From assembly GCA_934120265.1 (NCBI GenBank), contig CAKOTU010000004.1, positions 285-64,284 on the forward strand: DNA of 64,000 bases, read 5' to 3'. Numbering within the stretch: the stretch's first letter is position 1; each line of letters starts with the position of its first letter. A program made the position numbers and the translations under genes. Below are positions 3,679 through 49,324 of this stretch, in pieces. Below the pieces are notes generated by a model. It saw only the letters and a list, made by a program, of their open reading frames with translations. It was not told the DNA's origin and searched no databases. This DNA comes from an uncultured Bacilli bacterium. Its GTDB lineage: Bacteria; Bacillota_I; Bacilli_A; RF39; UBA660.

Positions 3679-3823
3679 GTTGAACCTTTATGGATTTATA
3701 AAACAGAAAGAAGTGGTATTATAAGTACAATATTTTAGTGAAAGCTGTATTATGTCTATATGTTTATAATAAATAAAAAGGGGTATAATTAGAATGTATA
3801 ATAAAGAGAGGAGTAAGAAATAT

Positions 3824-21436: not shown

Positions 21437-21826
21437 ATGAACGAGTTAAATAATGTAGTAACTGCAACTGGACAATACAATAACATCCCAACCTCACTTA
21501 CTTCTAATACTTCAGTAGTTAATATGATAGAAGGACTTACGCTAACTAAAGAAGCGGATAAACAAAATTGGAGTAGTGGAGATTTAACATACACAATAAC
21601 TTTAAAAAATGAAACAGATAAGGTATATTCAAATTTGGTCATTAAAGATGTTATTAATACAACTTTAGTAGAGTTTGTAAAAGGAAGTGTGACTATTAAT
21701 GATACTCCTGCAACTGAATCACAATATTCTTATGATGAAGGTAGTAGTACATTAACAATCAATTTAAGTGATGCCGGACCCTCATCAACAAATACTCTCA
21801 CGTTTCGCGTTACAAAAAAAAGTTAA
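21437..21826 (+). CDS. Small DUF11-like (conserved repeat domain) beta-sandwich protein, possibly truncated at an A8 run
   Basis: LTKEADK...GDLTYTITLKN...V.IKDVI...FV.GSVTIN...TLTINL...TLTFRVT resembles the DUF11 repeat. RBS gggaggtga. See the finding on 21812-21971. Confidence 0.55.
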   Translation: MNELNNVVTATGQYNNIPTSLTSNTSVVNMIEGLTLTKEADKQNWSSGDLTYTITLKNETDKVYSNLVIKDVINTTLVEFVKGSVTINDTPATESQYSYDEGSSTLTINLSDAGPSSTNTLTFRVTKKS

Positions 21827-21994: not shown

Positions 21995-22105
21995 AGTTTG
22001 CTGTGAAAACTGTCCATATTTTGACAAAAAACTCAAAAAGTATTGACTAATAATTTTGTTTTGTGTTATTATAAGAATGTAGATAAAGTAAGGTGGTGAG
22101 AATAA

Positions 22106-22468
22106 ATGAAAATGAATAAGAAAGGTTTTACTTTAATTGAATTATTAGCAGTTATCGTAGTATTAGCTATTATCGCTTTAATCGCTACTCCAATTGTTAT
22201 GAGTACAATTAATAAAGCTCAAGAAGGTGCAAATAAGAGATCTGTAGAAGGTTACATGAAAGCTTATGAAGCAGCATATTATGAATATATGCTTGAAAAT
22301 GGTGGTGCTGAACCAGCAACTAAATTAACTTCAGGTATTGATTATAATGGTGCTACAGTTACTTGTGAAACAGTTACAGTAACAGCTGATAAAAAATTCA
22401 GTGCTACTTGTACAGTAAATGGTAAGACTTACAAATATGAAAATGGAAAAGCTGATAATAATAAATAA
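22106..22468 (+). CDS. Short type IV pilin / pseudopilin-like protein (120 aa)
   Basis: MKMNKKGFTLIELLAVIVVLAIIALIATPIV, then a ~85-aa head with 2 Cys. RBS ggtggtga, an upstream TTGACT-type promoter and its own terminator. Confidence 0.85.
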   Translation: MKMNKKGFTLIELLAVIVVLAIIALIATPIVMSTINKAQEGANKRSVEGYMKAYEAAYYEYMLENGGAEPATKLTSGIDYNGATVTCETVTVTADKKFSATCTVNGKTYKYENGKADNNK

Positions 22469-22484
22469 TATTATCTAATATTAA

Positions 22485-22511
22485 AAAGATAGTTAATTGC
22501 TATCTTTTTTT
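22485..22511 (+). terminator. Intrinsic terminator after the short pilin
   Basis: aagatag-ttaattg-ctatctt followed by ttttt. Confidence 0.7.
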
Positions 22512-22549
22512 GTGCTTTTATGCTATACTCTAAAAGGTAGGATGATGGT

Positions 22550-23875
22550 ATGAGCAAAATAATAAATAAGTTAAATTTCATATTAATTATATTTGTGTTG
22601 GTATTAAATCCATTATGGTTGTTAACATGTGCCAACCTAAAATCATTTGGTTTAACAATACCTTTTTATTATTATCAAATATTATATTTTATAATTCCGG
22701 TAGAAGTAATTATTTATGCATATAAAATTATAAAAAAAGAAGTTAAATTTAATTATTATGATATGATTGTATTTATATTGTTAATATTACTTGGGATTGT
22801 TACTAGTAATTCGATTGATGTATCCACATCAATTTGGGGAGCTTATAAAAGAAATGAAGGCCTTTTGACGATGATAAGTTATTACTTGTTGTTTTTAAAT
22901 TGCAGAAGTTTAAATGAGAAACAAATACGTTTTGGTGTAAAAGTTCTATTTGAAATAGGAATTGTGCAATTTGTTTATTGTTTATTTCAAGTTTTTTTGA
23001 GATTCCCAGGATTAGAATTATTTTCTTTAAATGATGTAAATTATATGGCAATGGGTTTTGTAGGAAATCCAAATTTCTTAGGAAGTTATTGTATAATGTT
23101 ATTAGGATTAGCTCTTATGTTATATTTTATTAAAAGTGAAAGAAAATATTTTTGGTTAAGCATTATATTTTTTATTAATTTAATTTTGTCTCAATCCACT
23201 GGTCCTTTCTTTTCTTTTATAATATTATTTATCTTTATGATTATCTTCATGAAAATCAAAAACATAATTAATTGGGAAAAAGTAGGTATTGTATTTGTTA
23301 GTTTTATGTTAACCTTTATTGTTGTCAGTAATGGTGTAGAATTATATTGTAAAAAGGTATTTAATGATAAGATTGTTTCTAGTTATACAATAAAAGGTGA
23401 TATGCTAAATACTTTAAATTTATTTGGATTCTCTAAAGAAAATGGTGATAAAGACATAACAATTGAAGATTATGGTTCTGGTAGAATTACTATTTGGAAA
23501 AATACTTTAAAAATAGTACCTAAGTATTTTTGGCTAGGTTCTGGTATAGATACATTTGGATATGTTTACCCTGATAATAATAAAGGACTATATTATGATA
23601 AAGCACATAATGAATATCTTCAAATTCTTGTTACAGAAGGAATTTTTTCATTAATATTATACCTTAGTTTATTATTAACCTTGTTTGTTGATGGCATAAA
23701 AAGTAATAATAAACTTGTTTGGATATTAATGATGGCTTTTGTAGGGTATGCTTTGCAAGCGTTTTTAAATATAAGAGTTAATACAGTCGCACCAACATTT
23801 TATATAATAATAGGAATGATGGCAGGGCTTATTAGTCAAGAAAAAGTAAAAGCGAAAATCAAGGAAGTTGCATAA
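22550..23875 (+). CDS. O-antigen ligase family (Wzy_C-type) polytopic membrane protein
   Basis: ~10-12 TM helices and an external loop with YDKAHNEYLQILVTEGIFS, the AHN.YLQ...E.G signature of O-antigen ligase / O-oligosaccharyltransferase relatives. Confidence 0.7.
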   Translation: MSKIINKLNFILIIFVLVLNPLWLLTCANLKSFGLTIPFYYYQILYFIIPVEVIIYAYKIIKKEVKFNYYDMIVFILLILLGIVTSNSIDVSTSIWGAYKRNEGLLTMISYYLLFLNCRSLNEKQIRFGVKVLFEIGIVQFVYCLFQVFLRFPGLELFSLNDVNYMAMGFVGNPNFLGSYCIMLLGLALMLYFIKSERKYFWLSIIFFINLILSQSTGPFFSFIILFIFMIIFMKIKNIINWEKVGIVFVSFMLTFIVVSNGVELYCKKVFNDKIVSSYTIKGDMLNTLNLFGFSKENGDKDITIEDYGSGRITIWKNTLKIVPKYFWLGSGIDTFGYVYPDNNKGLYYDKAHNEYLQILVTEGIFSLILYLSLLLTLFVDGIKSNNKLVWILMMAFVGYALQAFLNIRVNTVAPTFYIIIGMMAGLISQEKVKAKIKEVA

Positions 23876-23929
23876 ACTTTCTTTTTTTTTAATCTTGTTA
23901 TATAATATACATACAGATGGAGGATTTTT

Positions 23930-24874
23930 ATGGAAAAAATTTCAATTATTGTACCTTGTTATAATGAAGAAGAAGCAATGCCAATATTTTATGAAGAAAT
24001 ATGTAAAGTTGCAAAAAAAATGAAAAAAGTAGATTTTGAGTTCATTTTTGTAAATGATGGTTCTAAAGATCATACTTTAGATGTTGCTCGTGATTTACAT
24101 AAAAAAGATGAAAGAGTAAGATATGTTTCATTTTCTCGTAATTTTGGAAAAGAAGCTGGAATGTATGCCGGTTTAGAAGCTGCTCGTGGAGATTATGTTG
24201 CTATTATGGATGTTGACTTACAAGATCCACCTGCTTTAATAGAAGAAATGTATGAAACATTAAAAAATGAAGATTATGATTGTGTAGCATCTCGCCGTGT
24301 TTCAAGAAAAGGTGAGCCACCAATAAGAAGTTTCTTTGCTAGATGTTATTATAAGTTAATTAATAAAATATCTAAAACAGAAATAGTTGATGGTGCTCGT
24401 GACTTTAGATTAATGACTCGTCAAATGGTTGATTCTATTCTAGAATTAAAGGAATATAATCGTTATTCTAAAGGAATATTTAGTTGGGTAGGATATAAAA
24501 CTAAATGGTTAGAATATGAAAATGTCGAAAGAGTAGCAGGAACTACTAAGTGGTCTTTCTGGAAATTATTCTTATATTCTTTAGAAAGTATAGTAGCGTT
24601 TTCTACTGTACCGTTATCAATAGCTGCTGTAATGGGATTGTTATTTTGTTTAATAGCATTTATTCTAATTATAGTTATTGTTGTAAAAACATTAACTGTT
24701 GGGGATCCAGTAGCAGGATGGCCTAGTATGGTATGTATTATTTTCTTTGTTAGTGGTATTCAATTATTCTGTTTAGGAATTATTGGACAATATCTAGCTA
24801 AAACATATTTAGAAGTTAAGAATAGACCAATTTATATTGTTAAAGAAACTGAGGAATCTGAATGCAAAAAGTAG
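23930..24874 (+). CDS. GT2 polyprenyl-phosphate glycosyltransferase (GtrB/CsbB-like)
   Basis: IIVPCYNEE, DGSKD, DVDLQDPP, plus two C-terminal TM helices typical of GtrB-type enzymes. Confidence 0.8.
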   Translation: MEKISIIVPCYNEEEAMPIFYEEICKVAKKMKKVDFEFIFVNDGSKDHTLDVARDLHKKDERVRYVSFSRNFGKEAGMYAGLEAARGDYVAIMDVDLQDPPALIEEMYETLKNEDYDCVASRRVSRKGEPPIRSFFARCYYKLINKISKTEIVDGARDFRLMTRQMVDSILELKEYNRYSKGIFSWVGYKTKWLEYENVERVAGTTKWSFWKLFLYSLESIVAFSTVPLSIAAVMGLLFCLIAFILIIVIVVKTLTVGDPVAGWPSMVCIIFFVSGIQLFCLGIIGQYLAKTYLEVKNRPIYIVKETEESECKK

Positions 24875-25284
24875 TAGATTTATTTAATAAATATAAAGAA
24901 GTAATTATGTATTTAATATTTGGTGTTTTAACAACGGTTGTAAGTTTGGTTACTTATTATGCTTTAACACTTACAATATTAAATCCTAATAGTGCTTTAC
25001 AATTACAATTAGCAAATATTATATCTTGGATTTTAAGTGTAGCGTTTGCTTATATCACTAATCGTAAGTTTGTATTTGAAAGTAAAAGTGAAAATATCGC
25101 TAAAGAATTAAGTTCTTTTGTGGGCGGTAGAATATTAACTTTACTCATGGATATGGCAATTATGTTTATATTTGTGACATTATTACATTTTAATGATAAA
25201 ATATTTAAAATGATATCACAAGTAATAGTTATAGTAGCAAATTATATAATAAGCAAATTATTTGTCTTTAAAGAAAGCAAATAG
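24862..25284 (+). CDS. GtrA-family membrane protein (putative lipid-linked sugar flippase)
   Basis: 140 aa with 4 TM helices. Overlaps the GtrB-like gene by 13 nt. Ends in the typical NYIISKLFVFK. Confidence 0.7.
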   Translation: MQKVVDLFNKYKEVIMYLIFGVLTTVVSLVTYYALTLTILNPNSALQLQLANIISWILSVAFAYITNRKFVFESKSENIAKELSSFVGGRILTLLMDMAIMFIFVTLLHFNDKIFKMISQVIVIVANYIISKLFVFKESK

Positions 25285-25337
25285 TTTGCTTTTTTATTTT
25301 TACAATGTTATAATAGTCGCAACTGAGGGGGAATTTT

Positions 25338-26462
25338 ATGAAAATGGATACATATGAAAGTTATGTCATAGAGCCTAGAGTAGAAATGCTAAAAGAATAT
25401 TATAAAGAGAATCAAGAATTAACAATTGTTGGATTAAACGATTCTCAAGGAGTTAATACAACTAGTTTATTTAAAAAGGGATTACTTGAATTCATTTCTG
25501 ATAAGTTAAAAGATGAAGAAACAAAAACGACCGTAATTAATGCATTTTCATTAATGTTTAATAAAACGGAGCACATCAATTATTTATTAAAATCTAATCC
25601 AAACTTAGAAGAAATAAAGGATTTACAAGTTTATGGAATGGTCTCTGCTTTAGAGAAGGCGTTTGGTGATTTTCATTTGCCTAGATGTTTAGGCAAAATA
25701 GGTTATATAAGTAGAAAGTTACGTAAACCTTGTGATGAAGATAAAAATATAAGATTAACAGATACTTTAAGAGATTCTAAAGAGCCTATAGTTATTTATT
25801 CGAGTGGTGCTAATGATTTAATGAGAGAATGTTGGAATAATCCTTTAAAAATTAAAAAAGATTATGAAAAACAATATGCAGCTTATAAATATGCTGTGGA
25901 TAAGTTAAATACATCAACTGTGAACAGAGTTCTTGATAGGGTAGATAAGAACTTTAATAATATTTTATCCATAAATGATAAAGCAGACATTTTTGCACTA
26001 GGACTATATATTCCAAAATCAATGCAAGGGGATGAAATGGAAGTATTCAACAATGTTATTAGAATATACAATTGCTTTTTAAAGGAATTATGTAAAAAAT
26101 ATAATATTGAATATGTTAACACTGAGTTTGTTGCTAGTCAAAATAACAAAAGCGAAAAAAACTTTCATATTACAACAGAGGGGCACGCTTATTTAGCAAA
26201 CAGAATAATAGAAATTTTATATAATAGAAAAATATATGAAAATAGAAATTTTGTTCTTCCAGAGCTTACTGGTTTTAAATCTGGTAAAAATGGTTTGTAT
26301 GAATTTTTAGTTGATTTAAAAAGAGATTATCGAAGAGCTGTTGAAGAGGGTATAGATGCTATGGGACTTGATGAGATGGCATGTAAGGTTGCCTTTGAAA
26401 AACGAAAAGAAATAGAAAGACAAATTGGCGTTGTTGAAAAAACTTTAGTGAAAAAAATGTAA
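25338..26462 (+). CDS. Possible SGNH/GDSL-fold hydrolase-like protein
   Basis: Block III-like SSGANDL and block V-like FHITTEGHAYLANRI. Block I is atypical (GLNDS). A weak call. Confidence 0.35.
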   Translation: MKMDTYESYVIEPRVEMLKEYYKENQELTIVGLNDSQGVNTTSLFKKGLLEFISDKLKDEETKTTVINAFSLMFNKTEHINYLLKSNPNLEEIKDLQVYGMVSALEKAFGDFHLPRCLGKIGYISRKLRKPCDEDKNIRLTDTLRDSKEPIVIYSSGANDLMRECWNNPLKIKKDYEKQYAAYKYAVDKLNTSTVNRVLDRVDKNFNNILSINDKADIFALGLYIPKSMQGDEMEVFNNVIRIYNCFLKELCKKYNIEYVNTEFVASQNNKSEKNFHITTEGHAYLANRIIEILYNRKIYENRNFVLPELTGFKSGKNGLYEFLVDLKRDYRRAVEEGIDAMGLDEMACKVAFEKRKEIERQIGVVEKTLVKKM

Positions 26463-26508: not shown

Positions 26509-26701
26509 TTGATATTAAAAAATGAATATTGTATAATAAAGACAGTAAAGGTAGTGATGGTATGGTTAAAGAGAAAAGTATAAACATAACTCAAAACTCA
26601 ACCTGGGGGGGGGGTATATTTAATCATACTATAATAATAAATAAAAAAGAAAACACAAAGTTTCTAGACTTTTTTGTAGTCTAGATTTCTTTGTGTTTTT
26701 T
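26509..26701 (+). promoter_or_regulatory. Leader cassette copy 3 (G10 tract; mini-ORF reads into the terminator)
   Basis: TTGATA(26509)-17-TATAAT(26532). Mini-ORF 26562-26684 encodes MVKEKSINITQNSTWGGGIFNHTIIINKKENTKFLDFFVV. G-run 26605-26614. Terminator 26653-26701. The stop TAG at 26682 lies in the 3' arm of the terminator. Confidence 0.7.
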
Positions 26702-37928: not shown

Positions 37929-37940
37929 CTCGTTTTGTAT

Positions 37941-39023
37941 ATGCGTAGATTAAAACCAAGAGTTAGAATAGCGTTAATCATAATTTCAGCTATTTTGTTG
38001 TTTGTAATTTTATGTAGTGTTATTTATAAAATAGGAATAGGAAAAGTTAGTAAAGATGAAACTTTAAAAGAAATAGAAGTAACATCAGGAAATACATATA
38101 TGTCTGTTTCTAAAATTTTGAAGGAAAATAATTTAATAAAATCAGAATTTTTCTTTAAAGTTTATGTCAAGTTACATAAGCCGAGTTCACTTCAAGCAGG
38201 GAAATACGAATTAAAGGAAAGTATGAATGTCAAAGAAATAATTAAGGTTTTATCAAACGGTAGTACATACAATCCTAATGTAGTTTCTCTTACTTTTAAA
38301 GAAGGTATTAATATGCGTAATGTTGCTAAAATAATTGCAGAGAATACTGAAAATACAGAGGAAGATGTTTTTGTAACTCTTTCGGATACTAATTATTTAG
38401 ATGAATTAATAAAAAAATATTGGTTTGTTACGGAAGAAGTAAAAAATAAAAACATATATTATTCACTGGAAGGTTATTTATTTCCTAACACATATAGCGT
38501 AAATAAAACAGATAGTGTAAAAAAAATATTTGAAATGATGCTTGATAATATGTCATTAAAGTTATCACCATATAAGGAACAAATTCAAAGTAGTACACAT
38601 AATGTTCATGAAATATTAACACTTGCTTCTATTATTGAATTAGAGGCTGGAAATAGTAATGATCGTAGTGGTGTAGCTGGAGTTTTTTATAACAGATTAA
38701 AGTCAGGATGGTCATTAGGAAGTGATGTTACTACTTACTATGGTGCCAAAATAGAAATGCATGAAAGAGATTTATATCAAAGAGAAATAGACGAATATAA
38801 TGCTTATAATACAAGAAGTAGTCAGATGGCTGGGCGTTTACCGGTGGGACCTATTTGTCTTCCTAGTTTAGATTCTATTTCTGCAGCTGTTAATCCAACT
38901 ATTTCTGAATATTATTATTTTGTAGCTGATAAAAATAAAAAAACATACTTTTCTAAAACATACGAAGAACATGCACAAACTGTTGCTTCATTAAAGAGTC
39001 AAGGCTTATGGTACGAATATTAG
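37941..39023 (+). CDS. mltG: Endolytic murein transglycosylase MltG (YceG-like)
   Basis: N-terminal TM helix, LASIIELEA, YNTRSSQMAGRLPVGPICLPS. Confidence 0.85.
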   Translation: MRRLKPRVRIALIIISAILLFVILCSVIYKIGIGKVSKDETLKEIEVTSGNTYMSVSKILKENNLIKSEFFFKVYVKLHKPSSLQAGKYELKESMNVKEIIKVLSNGSTYNPNVVSLTFKEGINMRNVAKIIAENTENTEEDVFVTLSDTNYLDELIKKYWFVTEEVKNKNIYYSLEGYLFPNTYSVNKTDSVKKIFEMMLDNMSLKLSPYKEQIQSSTHNVHEILTLASIIELEAGNSNDRSGVAGVFYNRLKSGWSLGSDVTTYYGAKIEMHERDLYQREIDEYNAYNTRSSQMAGRLPVGPICLPSLDSISAAVNPTISEYYYFVADKNKKTYFSKTYEEHAQTVASLKSQGLWYEY

Positions 39024-39601
39024 ATTTAGAAGAGTATGCACATAAAAATAATATTCCAATTATGATGAAAGATGGAATTGAATTTTTATTGGATTATATT
39101 AAAAATAATAATATCAAAAACATTTTAGAAATAGGTTCAGCAATTGGTTATTCAGCGATAAGAATGGCTTTAGTAGATGATAGTGTTAGAGTTACAACCA
39201 TTGAAAGAGATGAAGAGAGATATAAAGAAGCTTTAAAAAATATAAAAGATTTTAATTTGAATAGTAGAATAAATGTTATTTTGAGTGATGCCTTTGATGT
39301 AGAACTTAACGATAAATATGATTTAATATTTATTGATGCAGCTAAGAGTCAATACATTAAATTTTTTGAAAAGTTTAAAGAAAATTTAAACGATAATGGA
39401 GTAATTGTCTCTGATAATTTAAATTTTCATGGACTTGTTCATGCAGATGAAAAAGATCTTAGTAGAAATGTCAGAGGTCTTGTAAGAAAATTAAATAATT
39501 ATGTTGACTATTTAAAAAATAATAAAGAATTTGAAACATTATTTTATGATATTGGTGATGGAGTCAGTATCAGTAAAAAGGTAGGTGTTAAAGATGAATA
39601 A
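39008..39601 (+). CDS. Class I SAM-dependent O-methyltransferase (YrrM/TrmR-like)
   Basis: ILEIGSAIGYSAIRMA and IFIDAAKSQY, plus synteny. Confidence 0.8.
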   Translation: MVRILDLEEYAHKNNIPIMMKDGIEFLLDYIKNNNIKNILEIGSAIGYSAIRMALVDDSVRVTTIERDEERYKEALKNIKDFNLNSRINVILSDAFDVELNDKYDLIFIDAAKSQYIKFFEKFKENLNDNGVIVSDNLNFHGLVHADEKDLSRNVRGLVRKLNNYVDYLKNNKEFETLFYDIGDGVSISKKVGVKDE

Positions 39602-40754
39602 AAAAGGATTTACTCTAGTTGAACTTATTGGAGTGGTAGTTATATTAGGACTTATTGCTTTAATAGCGTTTCCAGCTTTATTAAATCAAATTAATACATC
39701 AAAAAATGAAGTAAGTGAGTCAGTAAGGGAATTAGTTATTAGTTCTTCAAAGTCGTATGTTGAGGATGATACTCAACTTGCACCTAAAAAATATTGTATA
39801 ACATTGGAAGAACTTATTGATGGTGGTTATTTAACTGAAGGAATTGTTAGTTCAGAACGTGATAAATTACAAAATAAAAGAGTGATGGTTACTTATTATA
39901 ATAACAAATATAATTATGAATTAGTTGATAGTAAAGATTGTTATATTTGTAAAGGTGTAAAAGCAGTAACAGTAGATGATGCAACCGTTCCTACAGGTCA
40001 GTATAATACTGGAGATGAATATACGTGTGAAGTAAAAAAAGGAACAGAGTATAACTTCTTTGTTATTAGTAGTGATGAAAATAATGTTAATTTATTAATG
40101 GATAGTAACGTTAATTATTATGGTGAATCTGTAAAACTTGTTGATGGAAAAATACCAGATGATATGGAAGGTGATTCAAAGAAAAAGGGTTTAGTTGCTT
40201 TTATATCAGAAGCAGATTATCTAGCTGCAGGTGGATTAAAAGACGATTTTTTTCTTGAGGGTTATGGAACAGGTAATTTAGAAAAGGGTCCGATAACTGT
40301 ATTAAATTATTTAAATTTTGCGACCTCTTTTTGGACCAATATAGAAAATTTAAATGAGGTATATGATTATAGTGTTGATAAAAATGGATATACAATTCGT
40401 AATGAGTTGCAATCTTTAGAAGTTAGACTTAACGGGAAATCTAGACTTATGACTGGAACAGAGTTATTTTCTACAGGGTTTCCATTTGTAACAAAAAAGT
40501 GGATGACAGTGAATTTAAATCCTATAAGCGAAAAAGAGGGAATATATGGTTATTGGAATTTAGCTCCTTATGGCAAGTATGATGTATGGAATGTCAATAG
40601 TGATGGTGGAGATGCAGATGGAACTATAACTATTTATGATGAAAAACAAGGTTCTGTATCAGTTGAAGCTGATGATTTATCTTTTGATAATTATTGTGGA
40701 GTTAGACCTGTAATCACTGTTTCTAAAAGTATGATATACAATGATAACAATTAA
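39594..40754 (+). CDS. Modular prepilin-type protein (second N-terminal subtype) with one type-A DUF1566-like module, embedded in the yrrM-yrrN junction
   Basis: MNKKGFTLVELIGVVVILGLIALIAFPAL. The ATG overlaps the yrrM stop (ATGAATAA) and follows aggtaggtg. Module: GDEYTCEV...NLLMDSN...GYWNL...CGVRPVITVS. Confidence 0.85.
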   Translation: MNKKGFTLVELIGVVVILGLIALIAFPALLNQINTSKNEVSESVRELVISSSKSYVEDDTQLAPKKYCITLEELIDGGYLTEGIVSSERDKLQNKRVMVTYYNNKYNYELVDSKDCYICKGVKAVTVDDATVPTGQYNTGDEYTCEVKKGTEYNFFVISSDENNVNLLMDSNVNYYGESVKLVDGKIPDDMEGDSKKKGLVAFISEADYLAAGGLKDDFFLEGYGTGNLEKGPITVLNYLNFATSFWTNIENLNEVYDYSVDKNGYTIRNELQSLEVRLNGKSRLMTGTELFSTGFPFVTKKWMTVNLNPISEKEGIYGYWNLAPYGKYDVWNVNSDGGDADGTITIYDEKQGSVSVEADDLSFDNYCGVRPVITVSKSMIYNDNN

Positions 40755-40774
40755 TAAGTAAATCTTATATGTAA

Positions 40775-40799
40775 AAAGTAGAAATATCTACTTTTTTTT
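40775..40799 (+). terminator. Intrinsic terminator
   Basis: aaagtaga-aata-tctacttt followed by ttttt. Confidence 0.7.
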
Positions 40800-40824
40800 G
40801 TTATAATGTCTTCGAGGTGATACC

Positions 40825-41676
40825 ATGTCTAAAAAATTAATTATTCCATCTAATATGAAGATGATTAAACGTTTTAAAAACAAAGTAGATGGTTATATTT
40901 TATCAGTAGATGGTCTAAGTGTAAATGCTCCATACTATTTTAAGTTTGACGAAGTGTTGGATATTGTAAGGAAGAATCATGATAAAGAAATTTTTATAAG
41001 TTTAAATAAGAATATGCACGACAGTGATTTAGAATGTTTAAAAGAAGCTTTATTAAAGCTAGATAAAACTAATGTAAAAGGTATAATTTATTATGATATT
41101 AGTATAGTAAATTTAAAAGAAGAGTTAGGTTTAAATTTGGAATTGGTTTGGAATCAAGAACATATGACTAATAATTATTTTACAATTAATTATTGGAAAG
41201 AACACGGGGTGAATTATACTTGGTTATCAAATGACATAACATTAAAAGAGATAAAAGAAATAGAAGAAAATGTCAATAGTAAACTTATGATAGAGTTGTT
41301 TGGGTATGTCTCAATGTTTACATCTTATCGTCATTTAGTTAACAATTATTTAAAAACATTTAACTTAGCAGAAAAAAAAGAATATTATATTGAAAAAGAA
41401 GGCAAATCATATTCAATTGTTGATGATAAAAATGGAACTACTGTTTATTCTAGCAATATTTTAAATGGTCTTTATGAAAGTGTAGAGCTAAACAATTTAG
41501 ATTATATTATTTTAAATAGTTACAATATAGATGAGGATTGTTTTGAAATAGTAGTAGAGTTATTTAATAATGTAAATGATAAAAATAAGGTAGAATATAA
41601 GAAAATAATTGATAATATGTTTAAAACTACAGATTCGGGATTTTTATATAAAGAAACGGTTTATAGGGTGAAGTAA
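40825..41676 (+). CDS. Peptidase U32 family protein (YrrN-like)
   Basis: Paired with the following canonical U32 gene, as with yrrN-yrrO in B. subtilis. An extended -10 (tgttataat) lies upstream. Confidence 0.65.
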   Translation: MSKKLIIPSNMKMIKRFKNKVDGYILSVDGLSVNAPYYFKFDEVLDIVRKNHDKEIFISLNKNMHDSDLECLKEALLKLDKTNVKGIIYYDISIVNLKEELGLNLELVWNQEHMTNNYFTINYWKEHGVNYTWLSNDITLKEIKEIEENVNSKLMIELFGYVSMFTSYRHLVNNYLKTFNLAEKKEYYIEKEGKSYSIVDDKNGTTVYSSNILNGLYESVELNNLDYIILNSYNIDEDCFEIVVELFNNVNDKNKVEYKKIIDNMFKTTDSGFLYKETVYRVK

Positions 41677-41677
41677 G

Positions 41678-42883
41678 ATGAAAGAAAAAATAAAAAAACC
41701 AGAGCTTTTAGCACCTGCTGGTGATTTAGAAAGATTAAAGATAGCAGTAATATATGGTGCAGATGCGGTATATTTAGGTGGTATTGATTTTGGACTTAGA
41801 GCTAATACTGGTAATTTTGATTTAGACGATTTAAAGGAAGGTTTAGAATTTGCGCATTCTCATGGAAGTAAAGTTTATGTTACTGTAAATATAGTTTTAC
41901 ATAATGAAGAAGGAAAAAATTTAATTCCATATTTAAAACAATTAGATGAGATAGGGGTAGATGCAATAATTGTTAGTGATCCGGCTATTATTAAAATGGC
42001 TAAAGAAAATACTAATTTAGAAATACATTTATCAACGCAGCAATCTACTATAAATAAAGAAGCAATAAAATTTTTTAAAAAAGAAGGAGTAACAAGGATT
42101 GTTTTAGCGCGTGAAACTTCAAAAGATGAGATAAAAAAAATAAAAGATGAGATAGATATCGAATTAGAATATTTTATCCATGGAGCCATTTGTGCATCTT
42201 ATAGCGGAAGATGTGTTTTATCAAATTATTTAACTGCTAGAGATTCTAATCGTGGTGGTTGTAGTCAAATTTGTAGATGGGATTTTGATTTAGTTGGTGA
42301 TGATGAAAAAATAGAAGGAGATAAACCATTTACATTCTGTTCTAAGGATTTATCAATGGCTGAATGTTTACCAGAACTTATTGAATTAGGTGTTGATTCA
42401 TTTAAAATAGAAGGTAGAATGCGTTCTGTTTATTATATAGCTACGGTTGTTAATGTTTATCGTAAGCTTATTGATAAATATTGTAATGATAAAGAACATT
42501 ATGAATATAATAGTGAGTATAAACGAATATTAGATAATTGTTCCAATCGAGATTCAATAGTTCAATTTTTCAATGGAAAAAATGATCATACCTTTGGTTA
42601 TTATAATGGTAGACAAGAAATATCTAATCAAGATTTTTTAGGTATTGTACTTGATTATAATATAGAAACACATGAAGTTTTACTAGAACAAAGGAACTAT
42701 TTTGAAAAAGGTGATGTTGTAGAATTTTTTGGACCAAATATAGAATCGTTTACATATCAAATAGGAGATATAGTTGATGAAAATGGTGAAAATATAGAGA
42801 TTGTAAGGCATCCTAAGCAACATGTAAAATTGATTGTAGATAAAACTTTAACTAAAGATTGTATGATGAGAATAAAAAGATAA
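41678..42883 (+). CDS. Peptidase U32 family protein (YrrO-like)
   Basis: U32 signature EYFIHGAICASYSGRCVLSNY. Confidence 0.85.
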   Translation: MKEKIKKPELLAPAGDLERLKIAVIYGADAVYLGGIDFGLRANTGNFDLDDLKEGLEFAHSHGSKVYVTVNIVLHNEEGKNLIPYLKQLDEIGVDAIIVSDPAIIKMAKENTNLEIHLSTQQSTINKEAIKFFKKEGVTRIVLARETSKDEIKKIKDEIDIELEYFIHGAICASYSGRCVLSNYLTARDSNRGGCSQICRWDFDLVGDDEKIEGDKPFTFCSKDLSMAECLPELIELGVDSFKIEGRMRSVYYIATVVNVYRKLIDKYCNDKEHYEYNSEYKRILDNCSNRDSIVQFFNGKNDHTFGYYNGRQEISNQDFLGIVLDYNIETHEVLLEQRNYFEKGDVVEFFGPNIESFTYQIGDIVDENGENIEIVRHPKQHVKLIVDKTLTKDCMMRIKR

Positions 42884-42962
42884 AAAAGAAGTTGACAAAC
42901 GTGTTAAAGTGTAGTATCATTTTGTCAGTTTGATTGATAGAAAAGACACAGAGGTGATTAAT

Positions 42963-43427
42963 ATGTCAAAAGAAGTATATTTAACTCAAGAAGGGTTAGA
43001 CGAATTAAAGAAAGAATTAGAACATTTAAAATTTGAAAAAAGACCAGAGGTAATCAATGCATTAAAAGATGCTCGTGCTTTAGGTGATTTAAGTGAGAAC
43101 GCTGAATATGATGCTGCTCGTCAAGAACAAGCTATTGTTGAAGGACGTATTGTTGAACTTGAAGCAATGATCGAAAATGCTGTTGTTATAGAAAAGAAAG
43201 CTACGGATTCTGTTAGTATAGGAACTAAAGTAAAAATAGAATATGTTGATGATAAAGAAACAGATGAGTATTCTATTGTTGGTTCTAAGGAAGCAGATCC
43301 ATTCTTAAATAAGATTTCTAACGAATCTCCAATTGCACAAGCAATCATGGGATTAAAAGTTGGAGATGTTGCTCATGTCGTTAGTCCTAATGGACAATAT
43401 GATGTTAAAATATTAGAAATAGTTTAA
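42963..43427 (+). CDS. greA: Transcription elongation factor GreA
   Basis: LT.EG...L..EL..L....RPEV...L..AR..GDLSENAEYDAA. ATG at 42963 follows agaggtga. Confidence 0.95.
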   Translation: MSKEVYLTQEGLDELKKELEHLKFEKRPEVINALKDARALGDLSENAEYDAARQEQAIVEGRIVELEAMIENAVVIEKKATDSVSIGTKVKIEYVDDKETDEYSIVGSKEADPFLNKISNESPIAQAIMGLKVGDVAHVVSPNGQYDVKILEIV

Positions 43428-43447
43428 GCACTGATTGTGCTTTTTTT
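43426..43447 (+). terminator. Intrinsic terminator after greA
   Basis: aagcac-tgatt-gtgctt followed by ttttt. Confidence 0.75.
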
Positions 43448-43482
43448 CTTTATTGTGGTATAATTTTTGTAGAGGTGATGGT

Positions 43483-44634
43483 ATGAACATTAATAATTTA
43501 GATGAATTTATTAGTGAAGAATTGTCACGACGTCTTGGAGAGGAAATTAAAGGAAATTATTTTACTGATAAAATGTTATCTTGGTTGGAAACATTAACTA
43601 TAAATTCAATGACTTCTCCTAAAACTATTTCAAGATTAACAAATTTAAAAAAATTAAACATTATAGGCCAAACCCAAAGAGAATATGGAGATAATATAGT
43701 TATAGATTATGATGAAATAAACGAATTAAAAAATCTAGAACAATTAGTTATTTTAAATAATTATCATATTAAAAGTTTAGATTTGAGTAATTTGGAAGAT
43801 TTAGAATGTCTAATATTAGTTGCTAATCAAAATTTAGAAGTAATTAAGGGTTTAGATCAACTTAAACATTTAAAGCATGTTGTTATTGTAGGAAGTAATA
43901 TTAAAAATAAAGAGTGGTTGGAAAGTTATATTTCAAATACAAAGAAGACAAAAATAAATATTTTAGATTATCGTTTATTTAATTACATTGCTAAGGATAA
44001 GAATCTTCAGAGTAAATTATTTGAAACAATTGGTAGTTGCCAAACTAACTTATTATTTGCGGAAAAAATAGGAATTGGTGAGATATTCTGTTATACATAC
44101 TCTATGATTGATGAAATATATACTCGAGCTAATCAAATAATTAAGGAAAATATTTCTGATAGTATGTCAGAAGAAGAAAAAGTAAGAGTATTATATAATT
44201 ATGTTATTAATCACTTAGATTATGACACAGAAGAACTTGAAAAAAGAGATAACTTGATTTTAAAAGATGAAAGAATTATAAAGGTTTATAAAAATAAGTA
44301 TAAGTATATAAATAGTAGCTATAGAGCTTTTACTACTGGTAAAGTAGTGTGTGAAGGGTATGTTGGTATGCTTATATATCTTCTTTCTCAAATTGGGATA
44401 GAAGCAAGAAATGTATATTGTGTAGTTAAAGCTTTTGGTAGAAGTATAGATGGATATTACAATCATTCAGCAATTAAAATTAAAATAAATGGTGAATGGT
44501 ACTATTTTGATCCACAGATAGAAGAAAAGAATCAAGATAATAAGTATTTTATGCAAACAAAAGAGGAATTTAGTGTAACTCATGATATTTTGGTTACAAC
44601 AGAACTACAAGAAAAACAGAAAATAAAAAGATAG
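43483..44634 (+). CDS. Cytoplasmic LRR plus transglutaminase-like cysteine protease-fold protein
   Basis: LRR units (LEQLVILNNYHIKSLDLSNLEDLECLILVANQNLEVIKGLDQLKHLKHVVI), then a Cys-His-Asp core (VCEGYVGML...YNHSAIKIKINGEWYYFDP). No signal peptide. ATG at 43483 follows agaggtga. Confidence 0.65.
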   Translation: MNINNLDEFISEELSRRLGEEIKGNYFTDKMLSWLETLTINSMTSPKTISRLTNLKKLNIIGQTQREYGDNIVIDYDEINELKNLEQLVILNNYHIKSLDLSNLEDLECLILVANQNLEVIKGLDQLKHLKHVVIVGSNIKNKEWLESYISNTKKTKINILDYRLFNYIAKDKNLQSKLFETIGSCQTNLLFAEKIGIGEIFCYTYSMIDEIYTRANQIIKENISDSMSEEEKVRVLYNYVINHLDYDTEELEKRDNLILKDERIIKVYKNKYKYINSSYRAFTTGKVVCEGYVGMLIYLLSQIGIEARNVYCVVKAFGRSIDGYYNHSAIKIKINGEWYYFDPQIEEKNQDNKYFMQTKEEFSVTHDILVTTELQEKQKIKR

Positions 44635-44642
44635 GTGGATTT

Positions 44643-46154
44643 ATGGATGATATTTTGCAACAATTGATTATAAATAAAGATAGTGTATATCCAGAATTGA
44701 ATGAGTTTTTAGAAAAAACAAATTGTGATGAGCTATTAAGTGTTTTAGATAGCGTAAAGAAAAATAAGCTGTTTAAATCATATTTTCATGGCCTTCATCA
44801 TTCTCAAAAAGTATGTTTTTTTGCATACTTAATTGGTAAGAATTTGAAGCTTGATGATGATGACATGAAAATAGTATTAGATGGGGCTTTGTATCATGAT
44901 ATTGGGAGGATGAATGATAGAGAAGATAATATTCATGGATATAGTGCTGCTTATAGAATAGGAAAAGAACATAAAGACTTTGGTCCATTTTATGAAGATG
45001 GTTTAAAGTTTACTTATTTAAAAGCAATATGCGATATGCATAGTGTGGAAGATGAACGATTTAAGCCAATTTTTGAAGATTATGAATTTGAAAATGGCGA
45101 TATAGAATTTGAAAAATTTAAATTACTTGCTAGTGTTCTTAAAGATGCCGATGCTTTAGATCGTCAAAGATTTAGAAAAACTACTCAAGCTGCTTTAAAA
45201 GAAAAATTTTTACGTTTTGACATATCAAAAGATTTGATTCATTTAGCCAAACTTATTAATGATCATTATACTTATAAAATAGATGAAATTATGTATAATA
45301 AGTATAAAGAAAAATATGAGGGTGAGGCAGAACTAGGATGTTTTCATGGTATTGGATTTGATTTTTTCAGATTAGAAAGTATTTTAAATTATGGAATTCT
45401 TTCACAGTATGAAAAAATCAAACAGGGAATAAATTCAACAAGAAATTTCAATGGAAATAATGGAAATATTTGGGTATCAGTAGTCGATTCTAATGATTTA
45501 CAAAAAGATGGTAAGGCATACAATACTTTTATTAAAAACGGAATAAGTTTTTATTGCTTAGTGCCTCACTTAATTGAAGGTAAAAAAGGTAAAAATAATA
45601 ATGGAGAGTTTGAACCTATCAACTCTTGGGAATATGAAGATGAGCATTTTGTTTTTGACAAGATAGATTATAGTAATATTCATTCTTTAGTTATTAAAAA
45701 AGAGATTTTAAACAAAAGGATAGATGAAATAAATTATCTATGTGGTTCTTGTAATTATGATATTGTTAGTCAAAAAGTATTAAGCTTTGTTGATGAGATA
45801 AAAAAGAGAAGTGGTATTAGTGTTGATTTTGGAGAAGCTAATATAATATTGGATAAGTTTAAAAAAGAAGTTATCGATTATGAGAAAAAAGATGAAAATG
45901 AGCAAAAGAAAACCAACAAAGAATTTATGCAAACTATAGATGATTATATTTTGGAATTGAATGAAGTCGTTCGAAAATGGATGATGCAATTTTATTCTAA
46001 AATTTTGAATAAAGATGGAAATATTAGAGTTGGTGATGTTATTGCTGATATATTAAGTAGGTACAGCGATAAAGTTAAAGATATTTATAATAATGATGAA
46101 GTCATCATAGTACTAAATGATTTAGGAAAGAAATATAGTAAGGTATATGTTTAA
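44643..46154 (+). CDS. HD-domain protein with a large uncharacterised C-terminal region
   Basis: HGLHHSQKV...LYHDIGR...LKDADALDR. No motif recognised in the C-terminal ~300 aa. Confidence 0.55.
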   Translation: MDDILQQLIINKDSVYPELNEFLEKTNCDELLSVLDSVKKNKLFKSYFHGLHHSQKVCFFAYLIGKNLKLDDDDMKIVLDGALYHDIGRMNDREDNIHGYSAAYRIGKEHKDFGPFYEDGLKFTYLKAICDMHSVEDERFKPIFEDYEFENGDIEFEKFKLLASVLKDADALDRQRFRKTTQAALKEKFLRFDISKDLIHLAKLINDHYTYKIDEIMYNKYKEKYEGEAELGCFHGIGFDFFRLESILNYGILSQYEKIKQGINSTRNFNGNNGNIWVSVVDSNDLQKDGKAYNTFIKNGISFYCLVPHLIEGKKGKNNNGEFEPINSWEYEDEHFVFDKIDYSNIHSLVIKKEILNKRIDEINYLCGSCNYDIVSQKVLSFVDEIKKRSGISVDFGEANIILDKFKKEVIDYEKKDENEQKKTNKEFMQTIDDYILELNEVVRKWMMQFYSKILNKDGNIRVGDVIADILSRYSDKVKDIYNNDEVIIVLNDLGKKYSKVYV

Positions 46155-46171
46155 ATGGTTGAGGTGAGAAA

Positions 46172-46537
46172 ATGAAAAAGGGATTTACTTTGATAGAACT
46201 ATTAGCTGTTTTAGTTGTTTTAGGATTACTTGGATTAATAGTTATTCCTGTTGTAGATAAAATATTAAAAGATAGTAGAAATGATTTATATGATTTACAA
46301 ATTAAAAATATAGAAGATGGTGCCAGAAATTGGGCTGCTAAAAATCCACTAACACTTCCTGAAAATGGAAATTCAACAACAAAAACAATAGCTGAATTAG
46401 AGGAAGAAGGATTTATTGAGGTTGATGTAAAAAATCCTAAGACTGGTGAAGTTTTTTGCGACGATTCTTATGTAACAATAACTAATACAGGTAGTGGTTT
46501 TACTTATAGTTATGATGCTGATTCAGGAAGTTGTTAA
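46172..46537 (+). CDS. Short prepilin-type (pseudopilin/ComGC-like) protein immediately upstream of murE
   Basis: MKKGFTLIELLAVLVVLGLLGLIVIPVV. RBS gaggtga. 11 nt to the murE ATG, with no terminator between. Confidence 0.8.
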   Translation: MKKGFTLIELLAVLVVLGLLGLIVIPVVDKILKDSRNDLYDLQIKNIEDGARNWAAKNPLTLPENGNSTTKTIAELEEEGFIEVDVKNPKTGEVFCDDSYVTITNTGSGFTYSYDADSGSC

Positions 46538-46548
46538 TAGGTGGATAT

Positions 46549-47922: not shown

Positions 47923-47972
47923 TAGAACACCTAGTGATATTTGTCATAGAATATCACAGGAGGTGTTTTTTT

Positions 47973-49313: not shown

Positions 49314-49324
49314 GAGTTGATATA

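Follow-up and report, generated by a model that had tools for sequence, protein, structure and literature searches.

The five-gene locus described here, located in a 64,000-nt stretch of DNA (the window) from an uncultured bacterium of the gut whose genome is tiny (1.0 Mb), is on balance best read as a pilus-surface glycosylation island made up of two separable units, the first consisting of a short pilin and the Wzy_C enzyme encoded behind it, and the second of GtrB and GtrA. We give a slightly better than even chance to the Wzy_C enzyme being a Firmicute pilin O-oligosaccharyltransferase, a role proposed by analogy with TfpO and TfpM. So far, attachment of sugars to pili has been demonstrated in Gram-negative bacteria alone, and the literature searched contained no report of a Gram-positive pilin glycosylated by a Wzy_C enzyme; the locus provides a Firmicute candidate. 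Its features are as follows:

22043-22072, + strand: site resembling a promoter, upstream of the short pilin gene (TTGACT-18 nt-TATTAT; TG precedes the -10)
22106-22468, + strand: short type IV prepilin, 120 aa (PF07963 N_methyl, 35 bits; TIGR02532)
22484-22512, + strand: A/U-rich hairpin and U-run between the pilin and Wzy_C genes (fold computation)
22550-23875, + strand: Wzy_C / WaaL-fold polytopic membrane enzyme, 441 aa (PF04932, 63.9 bits, cut-off 31.7)
23930-24874, + strand: GtrB-type polyprenyl-phosphate glycosyltransferase (GT2), 314 aa (PF00535, 125 bits)
24862-25284, + strand: GtrA-family small membrane protein, 140 aa (PF04138, 82 bits)
25338-26462, + strand: weak SGNH/GDSL-like protein, 374 aa (PF00657, 29.6 bits, cut-off 23.6)

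All five open reading frames are present on the same strand, as the preliminary description had it, and the strong expression signals it attributed to the pilin gene were found as a promoter-like site with TG and the ribosome-binding site AAGGTGGTGA. The promoter-like site has 10 of 12 consensus matches in a consensus scan and, judged by its sequence, would act as the promoter of the short pilin gene, while no poly-G leader was seen upstream of this gene. The hairpin has a 10-bp stem followed by U7, and the 60-nt stretch containing it folds at -12.5 kcal/mol (z -4.1), with 0/200 shuffles folding as well; it is probably a leaky intrinsic terminator in the gap between the pilin and Wzy_C genes, and is unlisted in a stricter terminator scan because there are too few G-C pairs in its stem.

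The product of the first gene is a candidate major pilin and candidate glycan acceptor. Its AF2 model (pLDDT 78) combines an N-terminal helix of 55 residues with four beta-strands, and across nine relatives residues 7-31 are invariant and C87, C102, Y109 and Y111 are conserved. It was previously singled out as the only pilin of major-pilin size, which is incorrect since the window contains a second prepilin of 121 aa (46172-46537), but among the short pilins it alone has an N-terminal helix identical to that of the modular pilin family. The 1.0 Mb genome has at least 43 prepilin-like ORFs, and adjacency to a pilin alone is thus not improbable (~4% per neighbour), so the argument depends on conservation across other genomes. 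The pilin was correctly noted to lack the C-terminal Ser used by TfpO, and this holds across the relatives: as their pilins end in Lys, the C-terminal residue is not the acceptor and the C-terminal Ser/Thr rule of TfpO and TfpM does not apply, and the alignment of the relatives contains no conserved Ser/Thr. The two conserved tyrosines, Tyr109 and Tyr111, fall in a predicted beta-strand, where their role may be structural. The genome also encodes pilus machinery, with the prepilin peptidase and pilB/pilC on contig C7.

The second gene was rightly assigned to the Wzy_C/O-antigen-ligase family, with a PF04932 score well over the cut-off; the Pfam scan returned Wzy_C alone, without a match to the PglL_A motif (PF15864). 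The best PDB fold match of its AF2 model (pLDDT 89) is WaaL (7TPG, E 1.7e-5, TM 0.52-0.57), followed by FtsW, and a profile search with the protein also matches 7TPG across the catalytic loop. Residues R312, H353, N354 and Y356 show no variation across 84 homologues and include the Arg/His pair which is essential in WaaL and PglL (PMC3643930). The same catalytic residues are also invariant in homologues from polysaccharide loci, and they do not tell protein-acting transferases from polymerases or ligases. In G003 and G004 the pilin-associated Wzy_C gene is the sole Wzy_C gene of the genome, and therefore looks unlike the polymerase of a polysaccharide locus; the second Wzy_C gene of the window genome does sit in such a locus.

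The evidence for a pilin-Wzy_C pair comes from gene order, as the two stay linked in relatives across seven or more flank contexts. All same-genus genomes with this Wzy_C (5/5) have a short pilin adjoining the Wzy_C/gtrB/gtrA set, with the order rearranged to pilin-gtrB-gtrA-WzyC in G004 and G006, where gtrA abuts Wzy_C, and with the block located away from valS in G004. Metagenomic and MAG homologues (38-49% identity) have the pilin directly 5' of Wzy_C with varied flanks, i.e. valS-pilin-WzyC-lepA without gtrBA, pilin-WzyC followed by reversed DUF4956/VTC with no adjacent gtrBA, pilin-WzyC-gerABC-gtrB-gtrA, and valS-pilin-WzyC-gtrBA-ruvA, while one homologue arrangement has a gene in between (pilin-der-WzyC-spoVIF). 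Across 80 species scanned, the three upstream slots held a prepilin ORF in 9-13% of cases, vs 1-4% downstream. On the tree of 84 homologues the window protein belongs to a well-supported clade in which eight of 10 members are pilin-linked, and in a second clade this holds for seven of nine; the tree also requires at least 9-11 changes of the pilin-linked state, which was counted against the pairing. Homologues with 29-31% identity are found in type IV pilus operons of cultured Firmicutes, with the order pilB-pilT-pilC-pilA-WzyC-pilD-pilM in Falsibacillus pallidus (each gene Pfam-checked), the same order in Cytobacillus oceanisediminis (from ORF sizes and N-termini), and pilB-pilC-pilA-WzyC-pilM in Haloimpatiens lingqiaonensis. 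Finally, the pilin and Wzy_C genes diverge faster than the rest of the block, with identities to G003 of 71% and 52% compared with 84% for valS, 86% for gtrB and 89% for lepA, and to G004 of 44% and 40% compared with 86% for gtrB and lepA. The pilin glycosylation proposed earlier is hence the leading reading for the pilin-Wzy_C pair, whose adjacency survives repeated flank rearrangement and recurs in bona fide Firmicute type IV pilus operons, but not for the other downstream genes.

Part of this linkage may be inherited synteny, as much of it lies within one lineage and one ancestral region (spoVID-ysxE-valS-folC-pil), and we consider it possible, albeit unlikely, that the locus serves envelope polymer decoration only, with the pilin a syntenic neighbour inherited from the ancestral valS-folC-pil region. 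Wzy_C would then be a TacL-like ligase or a polymerase, with an undecaprenyl-pyrophosphate-linked glycopolymer as substrate and a membrane glycolipid or some other envelope molecule as acceptor, and GtrB/GtrA would decorate teichoic acid via YfhO. This would agree with TacL of Streptococcus pneumoniae being a lipoteichoic acid ligase of the O-antigen-ligase family (PMC5727136), with the LtaS and three YfhO genes in the genome, with the co-variation of GtrB and YfhO described below, with the GtrB orthologues of other genera of the family, which lie in rhamnose/ABC-transporter polysaccharide loci, and with the abundance of pilin genes, which makes pilin neighbours cheap. A further point in its favour is that Neobacillus, Paenibacillus and Bacillus have the order spoVID-ysxE-WzyC-valS without a pilin alongside; the distance from Wzy_C, beside valS, to pilB is 12 kb in Neobacillus and relatives, where no pilin was found next to Wzy_C. 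However, the pilin-Wzy_C adjacency persists while both flanks change repeatedly, the homologues between pilA and pilD or pilM are in bacteria with few pilin genes, the joint divergence of pilin and Wzy_C outpaces that of their neighbours, and no Wzy_C ligase is required for the type I lipoteichoic acid that LtaS makes.

The third gene product had been described as a GT2 with the GtrB C-terminal TM pair, and indeed the whole protein, membrane pair included, aligns with Synechocystis GtrB 5EKP (E 5.6e-77); its best NCBIfam match is PgfS (330 bits, under the cut-off of 500). The reported overlap of gtrA with gtrB was confirmed at 13 nt. Both genes are sole copies in the genome, with no GtrB paralogue with membrane tail in an own-genome BLAST search, and GtrA is a candidate lipid-sugar flippase. 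Three YfhO transferase genes and LtaS are located elsewhere in the window genome, and in relatives GtrB/GtrA co-vary with YfhO and not with Wzy_C: in 61 genomes, 31 have both GtrB and YfhO, three GtrB alone, two YfhO alone and 25 neither. The two are directly adjacent in 12 of these genomes, GtrA is fused to YfhO in G007 and G030, and no GtrB was found in three genomes with pilin-linked Wzy_C, including the complete Haloimpatiens chromosome. The default role of GtrB/GtrA is probably teichoic-acid or wall-polymer decoration. Co-variation with teichoic acid genes, which had been raised for the cluster as a whole, is split, since Wzy_C tracks pilins and GtrB/GtrA track YfhO and LtaS.

The main reading of the preliminary description, with GtrB, GtrA and Wzy_C as one three-component system in which Wzy_C replaces the GT-C enzyme and uses undecaprenyl-phosphate-sugar to add one sugar to the pilin, with the modular pilins as possible further acceptors, seems decidedly improbable. 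It has a parallel in streptococcal proteins glycosylated by GtrB plus YfhO-type enzymes (10.1101/2024.05.05.592596). In the sister species G002 the Wzy_C slot, between the pilin and gtrB-gtrA, is taken by a YfhO, and G007 has the order pilin-gtrB-[GtrA-YfhO fusion], which suggests that the transferases are interchangeable; the best match of both pilin-adjacent YfhO proteins is PgfM1/PgfM2. G003 (87% complete) keeps gtrB-gtrA-WzyC with no YfhO, PMT_2 or Bac_transf match, and this, together with the contiguous gtrB-gtrA-WzyC of G004 and G006, fits a trio better than the two-unit split. In contrast, the two solved relatives of the Wzy_C fold, WaaL and FtsW, use pyrophosphate-linked donors according to the literature and the Arg/His pair is conserved, there are pilin-Wzy_C pairs without adjacent gtrBA, among them the three genomes lacking a detected GtrB, and the single GtrB/GtrA pair is already needed by the three YfhO enzymes.

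Nor is a single module of all four downstream genes supported, as the last gene is found only in the closest relatives. Its designation as a possible SGNH hydrolase stands insofar as PF00657 is over its cut-off, but the match is weak and PF13472 stays under its own; PDB GDSL lipases match at E ~2e-3, and the protein has no signal peptide or membrane segment. Homologues occupy the same position in G001 (75%), G005 (69%) and G002 (37%), with none found in G003, G004 and G006. This poorly conserved gene is probably peripheral and not part of the system.

In the two-unit reading, the short pilin, expressed from its own promoter and with a leaky terminator behind it, would be processed and assembled by the prepilin peptidase and pilB/pilC machinery of contig C7, and Wzy_C would transfer a glycan to a residue other than the C-terminal one. 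The donor would most likely be undecaprenyl-pyrophosphate-linked, as for every characterised member of the fold. GtrB and GtrA would make and flip an undecaprenyl-phosphate monosaccharide and, as the sole such pair in the genome, most likely supply the three YfhO-type GT-C transferases, which would decorate lipoteichoic acid or a wall polymer; a further modification of the pilin glycan might draw on GtrB/GtrA too. A pilus-related Wzy_C could instead modify or polymerise wall glycan for pilus crossing or anchoring in the thick monoderm wall, which we think very unlikely: it would fit the location inside pilus operons, the fold shared with SEDS peptidoglycan polymerases (FtsW being the second-best match) and pilins without a conserved acceptor Ser/Thr, but it has no precedent, the gene always follows a major-pilin-type gene and not assembly genes, and Wzy_C divergence tracks the variable domain of the pilin.

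Compared with known systems, the Wzy_C protein resembles WaaL (7TPG) in fold, profile and the conserved Arg/His of the external loop, although a monoderm has no lipid A-core; TacL is an example of the family at work in Gram-positive envelopes (PMC5727136), but what the window gene is linked to is a pilin rather than teichoic acid genes. The GtrB-type synthase and GtrA, with YfhO elsewhere in the genome, recall three-component glycosylation systems (cf. PMC5836110), namely CsbB/GtcA/YfhO of Bacillus subtilis and Listeria and the streptococcal GtrB/PgtC2 and PgfS/PgfM1, although the neighbouring transferase is Wzy_C instead of YfhO and all PgfS and PgfM1/PgfM2 scores are far under the equivalog cut-offs. 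By description, WsaB and WsfB of Geobacillus stearothermophilus and Paenibacillus alvei are likewise Firmicute Wzy_C-domain enzymes acting on a surface protein, predicted S-layer O-oligosaccharyltransferases with acceptors including Thr/Ser and Tyr (PMC2943079); unlike the window gene, they lie in S-layer glycan loci with a full glycan pathway, and their target is the S-layer protein and not a pilin. The pilin-specific O-oligosaccharyltransferases TfpO/PilO of Pseudomonas aeruginosa 1244 and Acinetobacter, and TfpM of Moraxellaceae, share the Wzy_C domain, the size (420-470 aa vs 441 aa here), the position immediately 3' of the pilin gene in the same orientation and the conserved catalytic His (PMC9829042, PMC3643930), with similarity detected at Wzy_C family level only; they are known only from Proteobacteria and glycosylate a C-terminal Ser/Thr, whereas the host here is a monoderm with pilins ending in Lys. 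The P. aeruginosa pilin-allele cassettes carry tfpO (group I) or the GT-C arabinosyltransferase gene tfpW (group IV) (10.1101/2020.04.19.049825, 10.1101/150227), and a phage-evasion role of pilin/enzyme swapping would here be an analogy with these cassettes only. Unlike the tfpW cassette, the GT-C enzyme here is of the YfhO family with GtrB/GtrA and not of a D-arabinofuranose pathway, but as in P. aeruginosa the slot behind the pilin holds alternative enzymes within one genus, Wzy_C in G000, G001, G003 and G005 and YfhO in G002, and the variable domain of the pilin changes along with the enzyme.

All five open reading frames which the preliminary description had combined into a candidate pilin O-glycosylation module, with teichoic-acid decoration as its main alternative, were recovered on the + strand at the positions claimed for them, and are listed here together with the gene preceding the pilin:

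21437-21826, between valS and the pilin gene: DUF11/B_ant_repeat protein of 129 aa with no obvious signal peptide
22106-22468, + strand: short prepilin of 120 aa (N_methyl PF07963, 35 bits; TIGR02532, 34.8 bits)
22550-23875, + strand: Wzy_C protein of 441 aa (PF04932, 63.9 bits, cut-off 31.7)
23930-24874, + strand: GtrB-type GT2 glycosyltransferase (PF00535, 125 bits; full-length match to 5EKP)
24862-25284, + strand: GtrA protein (82 bits), overlapping gtrB by 13 nt
25338-26462, + strand: weak SGNH/GDSL-like match (PF00657, 29.6 bits, cut-off 23.6, profile positions 75-208 only)

The 22106 product has a class III signal peptide (KKG|FTLIELLAVIVVLAIIALIATP; G at -1, F at +1 and E at +5) with a hydrophobic helix after it. 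In its AF2 model (pLDDT 78) residues 10-64 form a helix, accompanied by four strands; Foldseek matched this model to no pilin structure in the PDB (best E 0.57). It is not the only pilin of major-pilin size, as had been proposed, since a second prepilin of 121 aa is encoded at 46172-46537. The Wzy_C gene lies directly downstream in the same orientation after a gap of 81 nt. With a promoter-like site and a strong ribosome-binding site upstream of the pilin gene, and an A/U-rich hairpin with a U-run directly 3' of it (22484-22512), the two genes probably form a strongly transcribed unit in which read-through is partial. The poly-G leader is absent from the short pilin gene.

The genome to which the window belongs (1.0 Mb in 31 contigs, 94% complete; G+C content of the window ~28%) contains at least 43 prepilin-like ORFs. 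Most encode proteins of 280-680 aa that have nearly the same N-terminal helix but differ in their C-terminal modules, and the genes are dispersed among housekeeping genes (in the window at 3794, 9663, 26834, 34229, 39585, 46172 and 50398), so that a pilin neighbour is not rare in this genome. The region at 37935-50317, with three prepilin ORFs, was rejected as a pilus operon, as Pfam identifies housekeeping genes there (yceG, U32 peptidases, greA and a murE-like gene). Prepilin peptidase and assembly ATPase/platform are both encoded outside the window, in the single pilB/pilC/pilD set of the genome on contig C7:

C7:39297-41753: PilC-like platform protein of 818 aa
C7:42074-42400: prepilin peptidase (Peptidase_A24)
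C7:42891-44027: assembly ATPase (T2SSE)

The Wzy_C protein was modelled with good scores (AF2, pLDDT 89, pTM 0.90), and the best match among solved folds was WaaL (7TPG, E 1.7e-5, TM 0.52-0.57), followed by FtsW. A profile built from 30 homologues matched only 7TPG in the PDB, across the loop bearing the catalytic Arg/His. Four residues (R312, H353, N354 and Y356) are invariant in 84/84 Wzy_C homologues, and R312 and H353 align to the external loop of 7TPG; their equivalence to the external-loop Arg/His of E. coli WaaL (R288/H338) and PglL (R298/H349) is taken from the literature (PMC3643930). The Pfam scan gave Wzy_C only, with no match to the PglL_A motif (PF15864), and a scan with NCBIfam gave no match. 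Conserved residues were rejected as a means of separating protein-acting transferases from polymerases, since homologues encoded in polysaccharide loci have the same invariant catalytic set. The second Wzy_C gene of the window's genome lies inside such a locus (Wzx/Wzy-type, with an LCP ligase, on contig C5) and is the obvious polymerase. Two relatives, G003 and G004, have no Wzy_C gene other than the pilin-linked one.

The preliminary description had suggested looking for the same gene order beside pilins in related genomes, and the adjacency of pilin and Wzy_C is indeed kept in relatives. Within the genus, a short pilin lies beside Wzy_C, gtrB and gtrA in all genomes with this Wzy_C (5/5), in G004 and G006 in the order pilin-gtrB-gtrA-WzyC, and in G004 with the block detached from valS. 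Homologues with 38-49% identity retain the pilin directly upstream and have different flanks. The gene orders at distant homologue loci include:

valS-pilin-WzyC-lepA, without gtrBA
pilin-WzyC, then reversed DUF4956/VTC genes
pilin-WzyC-gerABC-gtrB-gtrA
valS-pilin-WzyC-gtrB-gtrA-ruvA
pilin-der-WzyC-spoVIF, an order shared by numerous uncultured Bacilli, some of which have three short pilins in tandem

A scan of neighbouring slots at 80 loci (one genome per species) found prepilin ORFs in the first, second and third slots upstream of Wzy_C at 8/78, 9/70 and 6/67 loci, and in the corresponding downstream slots at 1/78, 3/76 and 2/68. In a tree of 84 homologues the Wzy_C of the window falls in a supported clade of ten, eight of which are pilin-linked, and a second clade is pilin-linked in seven of nine; these are counts of non-independent events, and on this tree the trait would have to change 9-11 times. 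Most informative are the cultured bacteria, whose pilin genes are few: in Falsibacillus pallidus the order is pilB-pilT-pilC-pilA-WzyC-pilD-pilM (each gene checked with Pfam), Cytobacillus oceanisediminis has the same order judged by ORF sizes and N-termini, and Haloimpatiens lingqiaonensis has pilB-pilC-pilA-WzyC-pilM. In Neobacillus, Paenibacillus and Bacillus (loci L131, L148, L149, L153 and L158) the order is spoVID-ysxE-WzyC-valS-folC, with pilB-pilT on the same strand ~12 kb farther downstream, and the neighbourhood in the window comprises, in this order, spoVID-like, ysxE-like, valS, pilin and Wzy_C genes. The neighbourhood in the window looks like the remnant of an old Bacilli region joining valS, the Wzy_C enzyme and pilus genes. 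Matches to valS contain in-frame TGA codons in two relatives of the same class (eight in G047, four in G052), which means that this class includes relatives reading TGA as a sense codon.

The best explanation for these arrangements is that 22550 encodes a pilin-directed Wzy_C glycosyltransferase, which we consider somewhat more probable than its opposite. A purely envelope-directed role, one of the two main rival readings, has a precedent in TacL, the non-protein-acting alternative for an enzyme of this family (PMC5727136); set against the retained linkage to pilins, we regard such a role as rather unlikely. Other arrangements of the family were also seen in uncultured Bacilli: in locus L113 (2247-6134) two tandem Wzy_C paralogues of 429 and 430 aa flank spoVIF and dus, and in loci L081 and L101 (3149-6896) a Wzy_C homologue with 40% identity adjoins a SipW-like signal peptidase, with the N-termini of further neighbours resembling TasA/camelysin-type fibre subunits, so that the family may accompany other surface fibres too.

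Pilin and Wzy_C are also the fastest-diverging genes of the block. Identity to G003 is 71% for the pilin and 52% for Wzy_C, with valS, gtrB and lepA at 84-89%, and identity to G004 is 44% and 40%, respectively, with gtrB and lepA both at 86%; such joint divergence is expected of a surface fibre and an enzyme obliged to recognise it. The Wzy_C-linked pilins have in common a disulfide pair and a C-x-V-G...Y-x-Y...G-K-A ending. As the preliminary description had pointed out, a terminal Ser is missing: the C-termini in the window and relatives (...GKADNNK, ...GKATK, ...GKATAK, ...EGVK and ...EGASK) all end in Lys. No Ser or Thr is conserved across the Wzy_C-linked pilins, while a Y-x-Y motif is, and sits in a predicted strand. 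Glycosylation through Tyr, on the model of S-layers, is a guess only.

The sugar-supply genes follow a different pattern. GtrB aligns over residues 3-306 to residues 27-328 of Synechocystis GtrB (5EKP, E 5.6e-77), including the C-terminal pair of membrane helices, and scores 330 bits with the PgfS equivalog model, below its cut-off of 500. The genome has one copy each of gtrB and gtrA, three YfhO-family GT-C genes (contigs C1 and C6, none in the window) and an LtaS-type synthase gene. Among 61 relatives, 31 have both GtrB and YfhO, three GtrB alone, two YfhO alone and 25 neither, i.e. the two occur together in 31/36 genomes having either, and the genes are adjacent in 12 genomes. GtrB orthologues from other genera of this family lie in rhamnose/ABC-transporter polysaccharide loci without a pilin, and a GtrB homologue (E <= 1e-20) was not found in three genomes with pilin-linked Wzy_C, including the complete Haloimpatiens chromosome. 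Taken together, these four observations (single gtrBA, co-occurrence with YfhO, polysaccharide-locus orthologues and GtrB-free carriers) make it the default reading that GtrB/GtrA supply a lipid-linked monosaccharide to YfhO enzymes for decoration of teichoic acid or a wall polymer, as in B. subtilis and Listeria (PMC5836110). The module originally proposed is thus partly supported: linkage in relatives favours a pilin-directed Wzy_C enzyme, whereas GtrB/GtrA track YfhO and probably serve mainly YfhO-dependent envelope decoration.

In three relatives, a YfhO-family GT-C comes after the short pilin instead of Wzy_C. In G002 (contig C6; L044 8054-12481) a YfhO of 879 aa replaces Wzy_C after the short pilin and is followed by the same gtrB-gtrA pair; G007 (contig C18; L045 7364-11793), from another genus, has valS-pilin-gtrB followed by a GtrA-YfhO fusion; and in G030 (contig C60; L046 7697-11597) YfhO again follows the short pilin. 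The proteins of G007 and G030 are fusions of ~1000 aa in which GtrA precedes YfhO at the N-terminal end. The best models for the pilin-linked YfhO proteins of G002 and G007 are those of PgfM1/PgfM2, which glycosylate proteins in streptococci, with scores far below cut-offs. The adjacent pilins lack Cys and are Ser/Thr-rich (29-32%) in their C-terminal half, and in streptococci GtrB and YfhO-type enzymes glycosylate Ser/Thr-rich protein regions (10.1101/2024.05.05.592596). This swap raises the possibility that Wzy_C works with GtrB/GtrA, which also fits the gene set of G003 (87% complete), where gtrBA and Wzy_C are present without a match to YfhO, PMT_2 or Bac_transf. That GtrB, GtrA and Wzy_C form a single trio acting on the pilin is nevertheless improbable, given the pilin-linked Wzy_C genomes without GtrB. 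Similarly, we would call it a long shot that Wzy_C is a true third component of GtrB/GtrA, transferring sugar from Und-P to the pilin and interchangeable with YfhO at this slot; if so, it would be the first WaaL-fold member with a monophosphate-linked donor, and gut Bacilli would possess swappable pilin-glycoform cassettes.

For a pilin-directed Wzy_C enzyme, candidate donor-pathway genes are a TagO-like gene on contig C2 and a lone PglC-like phosphoglycosyl transferase (Bac_transf, 182 aa; C19:9136-9684), which could start a pyrophosphate-linked glycan and whose gene is flanked by those of topoisomerase/gyrase-like subunits (611 and 842 aa). The polysaccharide locus on C5, which encodes Wzx, a Wzy_C enzyme of its own, LCP and GT2/GT4 proteins, was rejected as a general donor, as its marker protein was not found in G002, G003, G004 or G006. 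This marker (C5:6485-9043; L019 1486-4044) is a polytopic membrane protein of 852 aa that matches no Pfam family and resembles YfhO only faintly, over one stretch (E 1.2e-4).

The SGNH-like gene is not counted in the system, because of its narrow occurrence (G001, G005 and, with 37% identity, G002 are the only relatives with it in this place, and G003 has unrelated genes there) and the lack of an export signal in its product, which has an N-D-S motif near residue 34 (found by eye) and scores below the cut-off for PF13472. A terminator-like hairpin lies 3' of this gene (26663-26685), before the next modular pilin gene at 26834. The DUF11 gene upstream of the pilin is restricted to the closest relatives (G001 and G005).

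In our literature searches we came across neither a Wzy_C enzyme described from a Gram-positive pilus operon nor a Gram-positive pilin whose glycosylation depends on an O-oligosaccharyltransferase. To our knowledge, the established cases of pilin-specific O-oligosaccharyltransferases (TfpO, TfpM, PglS), and of pilin glycosylation with an antigenic and anti-phage role, are all from Proteobacteria. A Firmicute-wide clade of Wzy_C enzymes tied to type IV pilins, with members from cultured Bacillaceae and Clostridiaceae as well as from gut Bacilli that have reduced genomes and >40 pilin genes, would extend this biology to monoderms, and would offer a way to study how the main surface fibre varies in these abundant, uncultured inhabitants of the gut. 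Such a clade may also hold new bioconjugation enzymes, with a sequon other than the C-terminal residue of the pilin, and the existence of cultured carriers makes the question of pilin glycosylation directly testable.

With regard to known systems, the PglL-type general O-oligosaccharyltransferases differ from the 22550 protein in having the PglL_A motif and in their size (~550-600 aa vs 441 aa; PMC3643930, PMC9829042). The predicted transferases WsaB and WsfB, Wzy_C enzymes acting on Firmicute S-layer proteins with Ser/Thr and Tyr acceptors (PMC2943079), indicate that the family glycosylates proteins in monoderms. In P. aeruginosa, it varies with the pilin allele whether pilA is followed by the gene for TfpO (a Wzy_C enzyme) or by that for TfpW (a GT-C enzyme), and pilus-specific phages are blocked by either modification (10.1101/2020.04.19.049825, 10.1101/150227); the alternation of Wzy_C and YfhO after the short pilin described here resembles this arrangement. 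TfpO and TfpM (420-470 aa; PMC9829042) share the Wzy_C domain, size and post-pilin position with the 22550 enzyme, but their defining C-terminal Ser/Thr acceptor is missing from the Lys-ending pilins, and for this reason we regard the enzyme only as one that would work in their manner, without assigning it to the group, with TfpO and TfpM as what appear by analogy to be its closest functional counterparts.
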